Part shown: one piece after another, positions 9,277 through 14,455 of the stretch
How the letters are laid out: every line of letters begins with the position of its first letter
Numbering within the stretch: the first letter of the stretch is position 1
Source: Planctomycetota bacterium
GTDB lineage: Bacteria; Planctomycetota; B15-G4; JADJEK01
NCBI GenBank assembly: GCA_044225365.1
Contig: JBGAIQ010000013.1
Span: 1-64,000, forward strand
Direction: 5' to 3'
Length of the DNA: 64,000 nucleotides
Notes under the pieces: model-generated
What the model saw: only the letters and a program-made list of their open reading frames with translations
What the model was told of the DNA's origin: nothing
Databases searched by the model: none
Translations under genes and position numbers: made by a program

Positions 9277-9672
9277 GTGAAGAACGAGAATGCCCGCTCA
9301 TCCGGTACGAACCGCCGTGACTTCAACCGACTGATCGCGCTCGCGGTCGGCGGCACGATCCTCGGCGCGACGGCCGGCTGCCAGGGTTCGAAGAGCGCTC
9401 CGGCGCAGGCGGAGATGGCGACGGGCAAGCACGCCTGCAAGGGCATGAACACCTGCAAGGGTCAGGGCGGCTGCAAGTCCGACTCGAACTCCTGCAAGGG
9501 CATGAACGACTGCAAGGGTAAGGGTGGCTGCGCCACGGCGGAGAAGCACGGCTGCAAGGGCAGTAACGAGTGCAAGGGCCAGGGCGGCTGCAAGACGGGC
9601 AACAACGGCTGCGCCGGCAAGAACGACTGCAAGGGCAAGGGCGGTTGCGCGGTCCCCGTCGCCAAGCACTGA
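9277..9672 (+). CDS. Cys-rich RiPP precursor, bufferin BufA2-like, with Tat signal and lipobox
   Basis: AAGGAG RBS then GTG at 9277. NRRDFN twin-arginine motif, hydrophobic stretch, TAG-C lipobox, then four C-[KA]-G-x-N-x-C-K-G-x-G-G-C units. Lies directly upstream of DUF692. Confidence 0.85.
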   Translation: MKNENARSSGTNRRDFNRLIALAVGGTILGATAGCQGSKSAPAQAEMATGKHACKGMNTCKGQGGCKSDSNSCKGMNDCKGKGGCATAEKHGCKGSNECKGQGGCKTGNNGCAGKNDCKGKGGCAVPVAKH

Positions 9673-9778
9673 TCCTCGTCGATCGAACCCGATCGTGATC
9701 GACGCGAGCGTGGAGCAGAAGTCCACGCTCGCGTCCGATCGTTTTCCGCGGAAGCGCCCAAGGCAGGCCAACACGAGA

Positions 9779-10633
9779 ATGAAGGCAGCGAAGTCCCGCA
9801 ATCGGTTCGGACTGCAAGACCTCGGCATCGGGGTCGGGCTGCGGACCGTTCACTTCGGGCATGTCGTCGAAGAGCGCCCCGCGGTTGACTGGTTCGAGAT
9901 CATTTCCGAGAACTTCATGGGCACGGGCGGTCGCCCGATTTACTTCCTCGATCGCGTGGCCGAGCGCTATCCCATCGCGATGCACGGCGTCTCGCTCTCG
10001 ATCGGCAGCGCCGATCCGGTCGACTTCGAGTATCTGCGGGGATTGAAGGCACTCGCGAAGCGATGCAACGCTGTCTGGCTCGGGGATCACGTCTGCTGGA
10101 CGGGAGTCGCGGGCCGCAACACGCACGATCTCCTGCCCTTGCCCTACGACGAGGCGACGCTCGATCACGTCGTCGCCAAGGTGAAGCGCGTGCAGGACTT
10201 TCTCGAACGGCCGCTCGTCCTCGAGAACCCGTCGACCTACGCGACCTTTCGCCATTCGACGATGTCGGAGCCCGAGTTCATCGCGCGGCTCGCGACGGAA
10301 GCGGATTGCGGGATCCTGCTCGACGTCAACAACGTCTACGTGACGTGCCGGAACCACGGTCTCGATCCGCTCGCCTATCTCGCAAAGATCCCGTTCGACC
10401 GCGTGGTGCAGATCCACCTCGCGGGTCACACCGACAAGGGCACGCACTGCATCGACACCCACATCGGTCCCGTCATCGATCCCGTGTGGGATCTCTACGC
10501 CAAGGTGATGCAGAAGGCGGGGCCGATCGCGACGCTGCTCGAATGGGATGAAGCGATCCCGGCTTTCGGCGTCGTGCACGACGAGGCGCTGAAGGCGGCG
10601 CGGTATCGCGATGCGATGAGCGTGGTGCGATGA
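9779..10633 (+). CDS. Multinuclear non-heme iron oxidative enzyme (MNIO, DUF692; BufB/MbnB family)
   Basis: GIGVGLR, FEIISENF, HGVSLSIGS, DHVCW, DLLPLP, LENPSTY, LLDVNNVYV, IHLAGH, IDTH, LLEWD. Confidence 0.96.
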   Translation: MKAAKSRNRFGLQDLGIGVGLRTVHFGHVVEERPAVDWFEIISENFMGTGGRPIYFLDRVAERYPIAMHGVSLSIGSADPVDFEYLRGLKALAKRCNAVWLGDHVCWTGVAGRNTHDLLPLPYDEATLDHVVAKVKRVQDFLERPLVLENPSTYATFRHSTMSEPEFIARLATEADCGILLDVNNVYVTCRNHGLDPLAYLAKIPFDRVVQIHLAGHTDKGTHCIDTHIGPVIDPVWDLYAKVMQKAGPIATLLEWDEAIPAFGVVHDEALKAARYRDAMSVVR

Positions 10634-11517
10634 AAGGGCGTCGGAAGCAGGCGGCTTCGAATCCGTCGATCGCCCCGCCGATCGGCCTCTCGCAATTTCA
10701 GAACTGGATGCAGGCGATCATTCAGCATCCCCTCGGCCCCGCGGTGGCCGCGAAGAGCGACGCTATGCGCTGGATCGAGCTTCCTTCGAATGACATCGAA
10801 CGAGTGGTGCTCCCGTCGAAAACGCTCACCGGGCTCGAGCGCATCTCGATCTACGCGGAGATGTACGCCGCACGACTCGTGGATTGCCTGCAGAACGACT
10901 TCCCTGCGCTCGCTCACGCACTCGGCGCCGACGCTCACCCGTTCTTCCATCGCTTCGTCGCCGCGCGACCCTCGACGAGCTGGACGCTGAATCGGCTGGG
11001 TGCCCCGTTGCCGGGCTACCTACGCGAGCATGTTCAGGCCTACGACAACGGCGAGTTCCTCGCCGAACTGGCGACTCTCGAGCGCGCGGTGGAGGAGGCG
11101 TTCGACGCGAGCCGGGCGACGACACTCACGCCGAAGTCACTGCGCTCGATCCCGCCATCGAAGTGGGGGGAGATTCGTTTCGCGTTCTCGCCGGCGTTCT
11201 CCCTTCACGCATTCGCCTACCCGGTGAACCGCTACTACGATTCGTTCCGCAATGCACGTCCGATCGCGATACCCCGCAAGAAATCGACCTGGATCGCGAT
11301 CACACGACCTCAGTATCAAGTCTTCCGCCATCCCCTGTCGCGCCTCCAGCACGCCTTGCTGACGGCGCTGCATGAGGACAGGCTCCACCTCGGCGACGCC
11401 GTCGAACGCCTCGCGAGGAACAAAGACCGCGAAGTCGAGAAAGCGCTCGGATCGATCGGAGACTGGTTCGAGACGTGGACACGCGCGGGGTTCTTCCGGG
11501 CCGCACGCGCATCCTGA
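10630..11517 (+). CDS. MNIO partner protein (DUF2063, BufC/HvfC-like)
   Basis: ERISIYAEMYAARLVDCLQNDFP and LAELATLE motifs. ATGA-coupled to DUF692. Confidence 0.85.
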   Translation: MKGRRKQAASNPSIAPPIGLSQFQNWMQAIIQHPLGPAVAAKSDAMRWIELPSNDIERVVLPSKTLTGLERISIYAEMYAARLVDCLQNDFPALAHALGADAHPFFHRFVAARPSTSWTLNRLGAPLPGYLREHVQAYDNGEFLAELATLERAVEEAFDASRATTLTPKSLRSIPPSKWGEIRFAFSPAFSLHAFAYPVNRYYDSFRNARPIAIPRKKSTWIAITRPQYQVFRHPLSRLQHALLTALHEDRLHLGDAVERLARNKDREVEKALGSIGDWFETWTRAGFFRAARAS

Positions 11518-11563
11518 GCAGGCTCGGATCTCGGAATCGTGCCAACCGCGAGGACAGCACGAT

Positions 11564-11651
11564 CGGACCGCCGGGCTCTGCCCGGCATCTTCTTGAAGCC
11601 GCCCGGCCGGACCGCCGGGCTCTGCCCGGCATCTTCTTGAAGCCGCCCGGC
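11564..11651. repeat. Perfect 44-bp tandem duplication containing REP-like hairpin GGACCGCCGGGCTCTGCCCGGC
   Basis: 11564-11607 and 11608-11651 both read CGGACCGCCGGGCTCTGCCCGGCATCTTCTTGAAGCCGCCCGGC. Confidence 0.92.
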
Positions 11652-12358
11652 ATCGTCGGGAACGTGCCACCGTGGGTCGGACAACACGTCGGGCGCGCCC
11701 GGGGAGCTCCGTTCGACTCCGCGCGCGGAGTACCGCGCATGCTGCGCGAACGGACTCCCCGATGCGCTTATGTCCTTTCGAGGGGAAAGGTCGTGGAGGC
11801 CCACTTTGAAATGGATCGAGGCGCCTTGGCTGGAGTGCCGCGGACGGCACCCCAGCCAAGGCTTTCCCCACGTGTCTTCGCGACGAACCCTATGGGGTAG
11901 GTAGGAACGCGGTCACCTTGCGCGCCCGTAGCACGGACATCTTTGAATTCGGCCCAGTTAGCGGGATCTACCCTTTCGTCGGCGTGCATGGGAACGCGTC
12001 GATATGGGTCGGACCGCCGGGCTCTGCCCGGCATTTTCTTGAGATCGCCCGGGATCTTTAGGAACGTGCCACCGTGGGCAGGACATCGCGTCGGACTCCC
12101 CGATGCGCTTCTGTCCCTTCGAGGGGAAGGGGCAGGGGCCCACTTTGAAATGGATCGAGGCGCATTGGCTGGAGTGCCGCGGACGGCACCCCAGCCAATG
12201 CTCTCACTACCTTTCTTCGCGACGAACCCCCACGAACTGGGAGGGTAGGTAGGAACGCGGTCACCTTTCGCGCCCGTAGCACCGTCATCTTCGAAGGCGG
12301 CCCAGTTCGCGGGGTCTACCCTTTCGTCGGCGTGCATGGGAACGCGTCGATATGGGTC
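11609..12358. repeat. Two tandem multi-hairpin units (402 and 348 bp) delimited by REP-like GGACCGCCGGGC motifs
   Basis: Units 11609-12010 and 12011-12358 share long blocks such as CCCACTTTGAAATGGATCGAGGCGC, GGTAGGTAGGAACGCGGTCACCTT and CTACCCTTTCGTCGGCGTGCATGGGAACGCGTCGATATGGGTC. Confidence 0.92.
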
Positions 12359-12370
12359 GGACCGCCGGGC

Positions 12371-14398
12371 GTGCGCCGGGCAAAGCTCGGGCAAGGAGGA
12401 TCGAGACATGTAATCGTGAAACCTTGCATTGGATCCCCGCGGGTCGCAGCCCGCCCGGCATTAGAGGGTCGCTGGCCGGAACCGAGTGATGCGCGAGACG
12501 GAGGCGACTCCGGCCGCGAAGCGTTCACAGGAAGCATGCAGGCCCAGTATGGAGCTCCGAAATGTCCCTCGCGAGAGCCGACATCGTGCCTAGAACTGGA
12601 AGGCCACTGTCACGCATCGAACGACCAACGCGGTGCGTGGTCTCGCCGGAGTCAGAGACCTGGGCATGTAGGCAGGGGGATCCCCGGGAACCCGGGAGAT
12701 CTGACCATCTCCGATCCACTCGCGGTTGGTGGAAGCCGCGTACCAAAATCCAGGCCGAGCGACGCGCGACCCGCCGTCTCGGAACGAAAACAGGCTCGCA
12801 ATCGGTACCGCCGAACGAAGCATTGCGAAGTGAAGCGGGACGGATGGTCAGAAGTCAGAGTGACGCATATGACCGATGAAGCGGGGGAATCGAACCCGAG
12901 AGACCCCGTGGAGGAAAGGCGGCACCGGGATCAGGCAGCGGCGAACGGCAACACGAACGGAACACCGAGTCCGCAAAGCGTGTCTACGAAACTTCGCCGC
13001 ATCGCGGAGTTGGCGAGGCAAGTGCGTGGGGTGGCGCTCACGACCCTGTCGCACCATATCGACGTGGAGTTTCTGAAGCGTGCAGTGGATCAAACTCGCC
13101 GCGATGGCGCGGTGGGTGTCGACAAGATGACGGCCGACGAATACGAGAAGGACCTTTCGTCCAACTTGGAGTCGTTGCTCGGCCGATTCAAGACCGGCAC
13201 CTACTTCGCACCACCGGTGCGGCGAACACTGATCCCGAAGGGCGATGGCAAGAAGACTCGGCCCATCGGCATCCCGACGTACGAGGACAAAATCCTCCAG
13301 CGTGCCTTGCTGATGTTGCTTCAGGCGGTGTACGAGCAGGAGTTTCACGACTTCAGCTACGGCTTCCGCCCGAGTCGTTCGGCCCATCAAGCCGCTCAGC
13401 ACGTGCGAAGAGCGATCATGGAGATACGGAGCGGCTGGGTCTTGGAAGTCGATATCCGGAGTTTCTTCGACTCTCTGGATCACGGCCATCTGCGCAGTTT
13501 CCTCGACCAACGGGTCCGAGACGGTGTGCTGCGCCGACAGATCGACAAGTGGTTGAAAGCAGGAGTCCTCGACGATGGTCAGGTGAAGTACCCGACCACG
13601 GGATCGCCTCAGGGCGGCGTGATCTCGCCGCTGCTGGCGAACGTCTATCTCCACCACGTGCTGGACGAATGGTTCGTCAAGACGGTGAAGCCGCTCATGC
13701 GCGGCAAGGTGGAGTTGGTGCGATATGCGGACGACTTCGTCTTCGTGTTCGAACATGAGACGGATGCGCGCCGCATCCTGGCCGTGCTGCCGAAGCGATT
13801 CGGCAAGTACGGCCTCGCGCTGCACCCCGACAAGACCCGGTTGCTGCCGTTTCGTCAGCCGCCCTTTGGCGGTTGGCCTGATACCGGCGACCCAGCCTGG
13901 ACGGGTGCGGCTCATCCGCCGCGGACGTTTGATTTCCTGGGATTCACGTTTGCCTGGACACTCACGCGTCGAGGCGGTCACGCGGTGTTTCTCTACACCG
14001 CGAAGGACCGCCTGCGCCGGACAGTGAAGGGCATTCATCGGTGGCTCCGAGATTCACGCCACTTACCGATCGAAGAGCAGCACGCGACGCTGTGTCAGAA
14101 ACTGCGCGGCCACATGGAGTACTTCGGCGTCACCGGCAACATTCGCCGGCTGCAGGTCGTCGTACGCTGGGCCGAGCGATCCTGGCATCAGTGGCTCAAT
14201 CGCCGCTCGCAGCGCAAGACGATGACGTGGGCACGATTCCATCGAGTCCTCCTGCGGTTCCCATTGCCTCGCGCGGAGATTGTCCACTCGGTCTACCGTC
14301 CCGGCGCGAGCTCCTGATCGCGAAGAGCCGGATGCTGGAAATCGGCACGTCCGGATCTGAGGGGGGCCGGGGCGGAACGCCGCCCTGGTCTACCCGAT
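12371..14398 (+). mobile_element. Group II intron (2028 nt), apparently intact, IEP without endonuclease domain
   Basis: 5' GTGCG at 12371. DIII-like ACCGATGAAGCGGGGGAA...GACCCCGTGGAGGAAAGG at ~12871-12920. Domain V GAGCCGGATGCTGGAAATCGGCACGTCCGGATC at 14325-14357 (AGC triad). Domain VI has a bulged A at 14392 and ends ACCCGAT at 14398. Removing the intron restores a perfect inverted repeat. Confidence 0.93.
12980..14317 (+). CDS. ltrA: Group II intron reverse transcriptase/maturase
   Basis: AVGVD, RPIGIPTYEDKILQRA, SYGFRPSRSAHQA, VDIRSFFD, GSPQGGVISPLLANVYLH, RYADD, FDFLGF and maturase X (LRGHMEYFG). No HNH tail. Probable GTG start at 12980 (VSTKLRRIAELA). Confidence 0.95.
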   Translation: MSTKLRRIAELARQVRGVALTTLSHHIDVEFLKRAVDQTRRDGAVGVDKMTADEYEKDLSSNLESLLGRFKTGTYFAPPVRRTLIPKGDGKKTRPIGIPTYEDKILQRALLMLLQAVYEQEFHDFSYGFRPSRSAHQAAQHVRRAIMEIRSGWVLEVDIRSFFDSLDHGHLRSFLDQRVRDGVLRRQIDKWLKAGVLDDGQVKYPTTGSPQGGVISPLLANVYLHHVLDEWFVKTVKPLMRGKVELVRYADDFVFVFEHETDARRILAVLPKRFGKYGLALHPDKTRLLPFRQPPFGGWPDTGDPAWTGAAHPPRTFDFLGFTFAWTLTRRGGHAVFLYTAKDRLRRTVKGIHRWLRDSRHLPIEEQHATLCQKLRGHMEYFGVTGNIRRLQVVVRWAERSWHQWLNRRSQRKTMTWARFHRVLLRFPLPRAEIVHSVYRPGASS

Positions 14399-14455
14399 TC
14401 CAGCCCGGCTCTTCTCCTGCGATACGACCGGAGCCGGGCTGGAGCCCGGCGGTCC
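14399..14455. repeat. 3' part of a REP-doublet inverted repeat split by the intron
   Basis: 12359-12370 joined to 14399-14410 gives GGACCGCCGGGCTCCAGCCCGGCT, the exact reverse complement of 14432-14455 AGCCGGGCTGGAGCCCGGCGGTCC. Spacer is 21 nt. Confidence 0.9.

Follow-up and report, generated by a model that had tools for sequence, protein, structure and literature searches.

The stretch of DNA analysed here, called the window throughout, comprises 64,000 nt (positions 1 to 64,000, forward strand) of contig JBGAIQ010000013.1 from the Planctomycetota bacterium assembly GCA_044225365.1. At 11564-12370 it holds a non-coding tandem array built from a repetitive extragenic palindromic (REP) hairpin and a longer segment following it, which we refer to as cargo. 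The array is bracketed by a DUF2063-family gene, ending at 11517, and a group II intron, starting at 12371; it begins 48 nt past the stop of the DUF2063 gene and has the orientation of that gene. Two units lie head to tail, with start-to-start distances of 402 and 348 nt and 88% identity, and each opens with the hairpin repeat GGACCGCCGGGC-TCT-GCCCGGC, the 22-mer GGACCGCCGGGCTCTGCCCGGC standing at both 11609 and 12011.

An initial annotation of this DNA had described tandem non-coding units, each starting with a REP-like hairpin whose first 12 nt equal the end of the intron's 5' exon. This layout was recovered in full. The two units are tied together by direct-repeat blocks D1-D5 (40-128 nt long, spacing 339-402 nt), the 22-mer opens both of them, and GGACCGCCGGGC directly precedes GTGCG at the 12370|12371 junction. 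The two 40-nt hairpins reported within the units (hairpins B; inverted repeats I1 and I2, with arms 94% complementary) also lie exactly where they had been placed. In a pattern scan, the REP 22-mer gave 3 matches in the window against 0.01 expected. Tandem Repeats Finder reports the 44-nt repeat of REP plus linker alone, present twice; indels distinguish the large units from each other. The features and their coordinates are collected in Table 1.

Table 1. Features of the repeat array and its immediate surroundings, in positions of the window.
Feature	Position	Strand	Basis
DUF2063-family gene, upstream of array	10630..11517	+	Pfam PF09836, 49.4 bits; open reading frame (ORF) list
Two exact 44-nt copies of REP plus linker	11564..11651	+	Tandem Repeats Finder: 2.0 copies, 100% match; REP hairpins 11565-11586, 11609-11630
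Unit a, full-length 402 nt: REP1 (TCT loop), leader, stem module A, hairpin B, 3' segment	11609..12010	+	
Stem module A (GGGGAGCTCCGTTCG...CGAACGGACTCCCC), separable hairpin	11701..11760	+	fold z -5.0
Hairpin B of unit a, 18-nt arms, 4-nt loop	11823..11862	+	inverted repeat I1; fold z -5.35
Unit b, 88% identical to unit a, without stem module A, with a 9-nt insertion variant	12011..12358	+	
Hairpin B of unit b	12162..12201	+	inverted repeat I2
Third REP, 5' half (tag and 5' arm, GGACCGCCGGGC) = end of intron 5' exon	12359..12370	+	
Group II intron with reverse transcriptase/maturase ORF, not part of the unit	12371..14398	+	
Third REP, 3' half (loop TCCA and 3' arm GCCCGGC)	14399..14409	+	junction comparison
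Inverted REP, TCCA-loop subtype; with the split REP, a REPIN-like doublet	14433..14455	-	sequence reading

Further copies of the unit exist at other sites of the genome. BLAST with a core of ~280 nt returned 25 pieces at 11 loci, and covariance model R1 gave 23 sense-strand matches, which puts the family at about 23 copies at 11 loci. The order at every locus is REP(+), a leader of ~100 nt, the core and REP(+), in arrays of 1-3 units, and some loci carry two inverted unit arrays. All cores not cut by a contig end have a REP of the same orientation ~100-120 nt upstream, and most also have a REP right behind them. Separable palindromic modules make up the cargo of ~370 nt: behind the leader come stem A (60 nt), hairpin B (40 nt) and a 3' segment, and the next REP closes the unit; the REPs that bound the units are in direct orientation, 350-400 nt apart. 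Summed contig depth in run X1 places the units at 22-33 times the depth of single-copy flank, and contigs of 4 DNA runs confirm a multi-copy depth. None of these contigs bridges the array or gives a clean presence/absence joint; the joints listed are short-sided (21-46 nt) and resemble connections of one REP to another at other loci.

The coding reading of the units was rejected: there is no codon periodicity (variable sites per codon position 179/188/237 and 102/132/93), no shared frame, and the indels are not multiples of three. Four unit ORFs searched against Pfam at E <=1 gave noise only, and a spurious 213-aa unit ORF, searched against 5.8 billion proteins, had 3 hits, two other ORFs among them, all in its own genome. 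Searches of other genomes were similarly sparse. In 40 relatives of the same family and order, BLAST of the unit found nothing beyond a 41-nt match (E 8.6e-4) in 1 genome, and model R1 gave two marginal matches (E 0.004 and 0.006). The same model was empty or marginal at 15 loci around homologues of the transposase described below. Exact scans found 0 matches to a 24-nt pattern in 185,579 species genomes (genome_contigs) and 0 matches to a 22-nt pattern in JGI metagenome contigs (metagenome_contigs). In run X6, from another study, a related strain also holds units at high depth; the unit family is therefore real in nature but narrow.

The relationships among the copies point to dispersal. Unit a shares 93-94% identity with copies from four other contigs (C40a/b, C70a, C73a/b/c and C13c) but 88% with its neighbour unit b, and ~10 copies cluster at 90-95% identity, so that the two units do not reflect a recent local duplication. 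Unit b is the older and more diverged copy. In the alignment of 18 copies, unit b (C77b) is the sole sequence without the stem module, which is also missing from the truncated copy C70b outside the alignment. The initial annotation had noted the extra nucleotides of unit a as a stem of their own; these 61 nt do fold as such, but since the other aligned copies keep the module, the difference is a deletion in unit b (near 12096) and not an insertion in unit a.

Stem A also occurs outside full units, at C70:138476, C93:49320, C24:8546 and C2:128. At C93 and C70, stem A and leader stand by themselves between REPs. At C24:8400-8720 and C2:1-330 (minus), stem A lies inside a different repeat, with ~150 nt of common flank followed by a GGAGC-tagged REP, so modules are common to different repeat families. 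At the start of another contig (C14:1-3040), a unit passes into AT-richer, non-REP sequence; an old 3' unit fragment with a degenerate REP follows 2.7 kb on, and neither of the two long ORFs that separate them matches Pfam.

The REP family and its transposase gene

The hairpin that opens each unit is a true REP. REP1 consists of a GGACC tag, a 7-bp GC stem, a TCT loop and a T-rich tail, and its 22-mer occurs in 240 copies at <=2 mismatches, on 57 of 103 contigs; the copy number in the genome is about 240-290 overall. A second REP type, GGACCGCCACGC-TCCA-GCGTGGC, shares the GGACC tag, has the stem GCCACGC/GCGTGGC and is present in 99 exact copies. The REPs are largely extragenic, with 19 of the 222 that have called genes on both sides falling inside rough gene calls. 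By the same rough calls, convergent-gene spacers hold 84 of 203 REP sites, as compared with 19% of all spacers, while REP orientations in co-directional spacers show no bias (52 vs 48). Inverted REP doublets are present as well (24 '+-' pairs, spacing ~30 nt).

A candidate enzyme for this repeat was located in the same genome. One gene at C76:107885-108550 encodes a REP-associated tyrosine transposase (RAYT), matching Pfam Y1_Tnp PF01797 (27.5 bits vs a cut-off of 23) and NCBIfam NF047646 (REP_Tyr_transpos, REP-associated tyrosine transposase; 85 bits vs a cut-off of 80), and HUH (HVH) and Y motifs can be recognized in its translation. Around the gene lie 2 REP1 copies upstream (107676, 107713) and 5 downstream (108556-108802), with REP2 hairpins between them, and the two REP types alternate in opposite orientation around it (C76:107640-108830). 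The RAYT locus and the units share REPs only, not cargo. We conclude that the REP is the cognate repeat of the single RAYT (HUH-type) gene of its genome. No REP lies within 1-2 kb of a weaker second Y1_Tnp match (C75:63978-65684, 30.4 bits); upstream of this match is an open frame in which a peptide stretch (VVTDRSRRRRGGHGSQPPPP-like) recurs in tandem.

The REP and the RAYT share a narrow distribution. At <=1 mismatch, the REP occurs 221 times in its own genome and 0-1 times in each of the 40 relatives, where a reversed control pattern likewise gave 0-1 matches. These relatives contain no close RAYT homologue, the best matches reaching 29-33% identity in 2 genomes. With both REP and close RAYT homologue scarce or absent among them, the REP family is specific to the RAYT-bearing lineage. 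Metagenome-assembled genomes (MAGs) of Planctomycetota (59% identity), Hydrogenedentes (51%) and Acidobacteriota (49%) contain the nearest public relatives of the RAYT. The hairpins on the flanks of these genes have the same tag (GGAGC/GAGC) and loop (TCCA), but their stems are GCCGGGC, GCCAGGC or GCCAATC, the other arm matching in each (sites L123:7-44 and 2216-2253; L124:891, 2718 and 3600; L125:2816 and 3600). On this comparison, the REP hairpin itself covaries between species, together with its enzyme.

Within the genome, units are associated with one form of the REP. The GGACC/TCT subtype makes up 32 of 37 exact REPs at unit loci and 52 of 202 elsewhere, counts in which copies are not independent, and the unit therefore carries its own REP subtype. 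In the first REP of the unit, 22 columns of the 18-copy alignment are invariant or at least 90% conserved; the cargo is far less well kept, with an average of 1.8 of 18 copies departing from the consensus per column. Both the closing REP of the array in the window and its inverted partner at 14433-14455 have the TCCA loop. This fits a third REP that was already resident, with the units added beside an existing REP doublet.

Pairing among the genomic copies

The initial annotation had held that differences between the two units preserve pairing and that the structure is under selection, the units then being either an unnamed multi-branch non-coding RNA or a REP-bounded element. The letters and coordinates of its first example, CCTTTC-GAGGG-GAAAGG at 11774-11790 and CCCTTC-GAGGG-GAAGGG at 12115-12131, are exact. 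Its helices were written on the alignment of 18 genomic copies and compared with 500 shuffles. Cells that pair amount to 90.7%, and to 88.9% after partners are shuffled, a value nearly as high because most columns barely vary. Six pairs are changed on both sides, compared with 4.7±1.3 in shuffles (137 of 500 at least as high), and there are 19 further pair types, compared with 20.2.

The individual examples fare similarly. The pair underlying the first one (columns 186/198) is unpaired in 10 of 18 copies, and that of the second (237/274) is C-G in 12, A-U in 3 and unpaired in 2 copies. The long-range helices CGACGAA/TTCGTCG and GGGTAG/CTACCC, which had been noted in both units, have a change on both sides in 0 of 13 pairs; the former is paired in only 83.6% of cells, and one of the two is broken in 17 cells. 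Within hairpin B, 9 of 16 copies show a C·C mismatch. Mismatch cells are G·T and A·C about equally often (19 vs 24), so that neither strand shows a G·U excess or resembles an RNA under selection. The compensatory changes seen between two copies thus vanish in the 18-copy comparison: preservation of pairing beyond chance is not confirmed, no significant covariation emerges from the larger alignment, and a candidate new structured RNA is removed.

The predicted folds are strong and show no preference for a strand. The whole unit folds better than its shuffles (z -4.45), and its opposite strand does so as well (z -4.59). In the region of the extra 61 nt, a 73-nt stretch folds at -45.2 kcal/mol (z -5.0). 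Individual copies have lost modules, with stem A missing from 2 copies, hairpin B missing fully from 1 and truncated in 1, and a 26-nt 3' piece missing from 7. Unit b has a 14-bp helix in which 9 nt make up one arm; all younger copies lack these 9 nt. Conservation along the cargo reaches its lowest 25-column window at P = 0.029 (column permutation), too weak for a constrained motif. Two further procedures were set aside: applied to the full alignment, RNAalifold joined REP 1 to REP 2 and treated the variant stems wrongly, so its structure was not used, and G·U noise overwhelmed a brute-force listing of column pairs that covary.

Comparison with known RNA families gave no counterpart for the units. 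At gathering thresholds, Rfam reports the group II intron alone in the whole window, and at E <=10 in 11400-12500 the best match has 24.3 bits against a 90-bit threshold, with no HEARO, intron domains or ribozymes. No RNA run is listed as containing 10900-12370. The copies are decaying, by module deletions and with no bias toward preserving pairs, and the proposal of a structured RNA is not supported for the units.

Spread of the units and likeness to known systems

On balance, we read the region as a short array whose repeat, a mosaic of REP plus cargo, is intergenic, non-coding and specific to its genome, and was probably copied by the RAYT. The units look like selfish intergenic DNA, not a conserved structured RNA. 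The RAYT would cut DNA in single-stranded form where two direct REPs in succession have their foot, and rejoin it at another REP, in a manner resembling IS200/IS605 peel-and-paste and the action of Escherichia coli TnpA-REP on bacterial interspersed mosaic elements (BIMEs) in vitro. A REP with everything up to the next REP would be copied in one piece beside a resident REP, and repeated copying of this kind would yield head-to-tail arrays with common REPs. The cargo hairpins would then be palindromic DNA modules riding along, with no selected RNA fold. We infer such copying of REP plus cargo beside other REPs by analogy; as described in the available text of PMC3333891, E. coli TnpA-REP cleaves and rejoins its REP in single-stranded DNA.

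Several observations weigh against this reading. No transposition event, circle junction or empty site was seen, and the presumed action of the RAYT on this REP is drawn from family membership and from the literature (available text of PMC3333891). Classical REPINs are inverted doublets with short spacers, and a 370-nt cargo between direct REPs is an undescribed substrate. Two of the five measures in the pairing test exceeded all 500 shuffles (double-changed cells 15 vs 6.6; covariation score 0.056 vs 0.039), although both count cells, and related sequences can give such an excess without structure, as the tool itself warns. Even so, about three compensated pairs in hairpin B are real, each of them seen in 3 sequences. 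In short DNA palindromes, compensated changes can also arise without selection through template switching in quasi-palindromes. Both variant classes of stem A make long hairpins (z -5.0 and -3.2), and some pressure to stay palindromic, at the DNA or the RNA level, is therefore conceivable. Finally, array edges abut a gene 3' end in 12 cases, and in all 12 the array has the orientation of the gene; among these are 4 of 4 arrays in co-directional spacers and 3 of 3 convergent spacers with the -> <- arrangement. REPs in general lack such a bias, and purely inert cargo does not predict it.

This co-orientation keeps a role in 3' untranslated regions (3'-UTRs) alive as the main rival. The unit would then be a transcribed RNA element, acting as a stabiliser, terminator or processing platform, or a multi-hairpin RNA arising by read-through of the upstream gene, in which REP and T-rich tail provide a terminator-like stop. 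In line with such a role, units and arrays start 3-77 nt after stop codons, and the three + REPs with their ATCTTCTT tail are the sole terminator-like sites in 11300-12700 (3 vs 1.0±1.1 in shuffles); the whole-unit fold agrees with it too. However, the opposite strand folds equally well, G·U is not above A·C on either strand, covarying pairs are not in excess, individual copies have lost modules, and the unit was not found outside its own genome in the sets searched. Moreover, bare REP doublets also favour the -> <- arrangement, so that only about 4-6 of the orientation choices are independent. We regard a 3'-UTR element as rather unlikely. A combined view, in which the unit is a new type of RAYT substrate (DNA between direct REPs being peeled out and pasted beside a REP) whose cargo has been kept for its action in 3'-UTRs, strikes us as doubtful, though somewhat less so.

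Copying by the RAYT must also be weighed against spread without it. Homologous or illegitimate recombination and gene conversion between REPs could disperse the units, circles excised by REP-REP recombination could re-integrate at other REPs, and unequal crossing-over could build the arrays. Every unit is indeed bounded by identical REPs of 22-35 nt, these REPs are common to neighbouring units in arrays, the mosaic occurrence of stem A in two repeat families would suit such exchange, and many contigs break within units or REP clusters, as expected of recombining repeats. Against this, 22-35 nt is short for RecA-dependent exchange, and array neighbours are not closest relatives, which argues against unequal crossing-over as the main source. 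The link of the units to one REP subtype, together with a cognate RAYT, fits enzyme-driven copying better. We regard a RAYT-free origin as quite unlikely.

Other mobile elements were considered as sources of the unit and rejected. A scaffold for TnpB guide RNA finds no TnpB domain (PF07282) in the assembly, and for an IS110 bridge RNA, the single IS110 transposase in the assembly has no REP within 2.5 kb. A palindrome-associated transposable element (PATE) derived from IS200/IS605 is met by the same lack of TnpB and by a RAYT locus without cargo sequence. More broadly, the unit could be a gene-less derivative of such an element, like a miniature inverted-repeat transposable element (MITE) or a PATE, or a fragment of the neighbouring intron. 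Its direct terminal hairpins do recall IS200/IS605 ends, and the available text of PMC12288879 describes a precedent in Pseudomonas putida, where the ssr9 small RNA (sRNA) module is moved in trans by a REP-targeting IS110 transposase. Yet no longer element carries the cargo sequence, all BLAST and covariance-model matches lie in REP clusters, Rfam has no match at E <=10, and just one of the three intron sites adjoins units (that in the window, C77), C85 having REPs only and the C40 junction lying ~2 kb from the array of its contig. A derivative of this kind is highly improbable.

The initial annotation's other proposal, a REP-bounded element of BIME or REPIN type amplified by an HUH transposase, is supported by a high-copy REP, a RAYT flanked by that same REP, and direct REPs bounding the units. 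Neither class applies in its strict sense. As a REPIN proper, the unit fails in having direct bounding REPs 350-400 nt apart, and the doublet formed by the split REP at 12359 and REP(-) at 14433 is not the unit. As a BIME proper, it has direct REPs and a 'linker' of ~370 nt, the alternating pattern occurring at the RAYT locus.

Preferring a repeat of REP plus cargo probably copied by the RAYT, we compared it with described systems. A close resemblance is to the E. coli REPtron of REPs, BIMEs and TnpA-REP, which, in the available text of PMC3333891, likewise comprises short, GC-rich extragenic palindromes that number in the hundreds and cluster behind genes, and one Y1/HUH transposase gene flanked by its own REPs. 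The REP subtypes alternating around the RAYT are like the Y and Z (PU) types of E. coli BIMEs, which are also mosaics of REPs and other conserved motifs. In contrast, the piece between REPs here is ~370 nt of conserved sequence and not a short linker, the bounding REPs are direct and not inverted, the tag is GGACC/GGAGC and not GTAG or CGTC, and the host is a Planctomycetota-like MAG. In the REPIN-RAYT system of Pseudomonas fluorescens (Bertels and Rainey), non-autonomous repeats are thought to be copied by a single-copy RAYT (available text of PMC3116915 and PMC3337134), and these repeats resemble the units in forming genome-specific families with star-like groups of near-identical copies. 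A REPIN there consists of two inverted REPs with a short spacer, whereas the unit here has one REP, a long cargo and a next, direct REP. In the ssr9 module of ISPpu9 in P. putida KT2440 (available text of PMC12288879), a REP-tied non-coding module similarly multiplies separately via a transposase encoded elsewhere; however, ssr9 is an expressed sRNA and its IS110-family enzyme inserts into REPs, whereas here the candidate enzyme is a RAYT and the REPs are intact on both sides.

A more distant parallel comes from Neisseria. Its intergenic mosaic elements (NIMEs) consist of repeated blocks, 50-150 bp in size, with 20-bp dRS3 repeats on either side; dRS3 is a target of phage and recombinase. Like the units, NIMEs form arrays between genes whose longer, reshuffled blocks are bracketed by a short repeat of high abundance and are common to different mosaics. 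As short repeat, associated enzyme and phylum all differ, the likeness is architectural only.

The genome thus offers a clear REP-RAYT system in a Planctomycetota-like host, with a tag that is neither of the two described. As to the host, 18 PSD1-domain genes, with 0 in 14 control genomes, fit the Planctomycetota label; a transporter used as query returned mixed phyla. Intergenic repeats of REP, BIME or REPIN type are little described in this phylum; the available text of PMC3733652 mentions tagged REPs in Planctomycetes, and literature on RAYTs and REPINs in Planctomycetes, covered without supplements, yielded no cargo-bearing form. If the RAYT does copy REP plus cargo, the range of DNA credited to these domesticated transposases would widen, from REP doublets to sizeable cargo.

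The group II intron and neighbouring genes

The same REP doubles as a homing site for the group II intron. The intron is recognized by Rfam RF02005 (108 bits) and RF00029 (47.7 bits) and by TIGR04416 (343.5 bits vs 300); its domains I-IV and V-VI and its reverse transcriptase/maturase ORF are present, and its 5' end at 12371 reads GTGCG, in agreement with GUGYG. It sits between the 5' arm of the REP (GGACCGCCGGGC) and its loop and 3' arm (TCCAGCCCGGC), the interrupted repeat spanning 12359-14409. Two further junctions at contig ends, C85:119809-119887 and C40:238566-238712, have the same 5' exon and the 3' exon TCCGCCCGGC. All 3 intron junctions seen therefore fall at the same point of a REP, and depth indicates about 3 intron copies (37.8 vs 13.6). 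GCCCGGC at 12453-12459 is a candidate exon-binding site that could pair with the REP arm. A 2006 table, in the available part of PMC1525189, has 2 of 9 P. putida group II introns adjoining REPs.

Between the intron contig of run X6 and the window, 12 of 2033 positions differ; for contigs of the flanking genes, the figures are 17 of 240 and 38 of 350. The two strains thus resemble each other far more closely in the intron than in their genes, with the provision that these contigs are metagenomic and may mix organisms.

The DUF2063 gene beside the array has a partner of its own. Directly upstream of it lies an MbnB/TglH/ChrH-family gene (PF05114, 354 bits), the pair spanning 9524-11517. Such a gene pair is typical of loci for ribosomally synthesized and post-translationally modified peptides (RiPPs), in which a peptide is modified.

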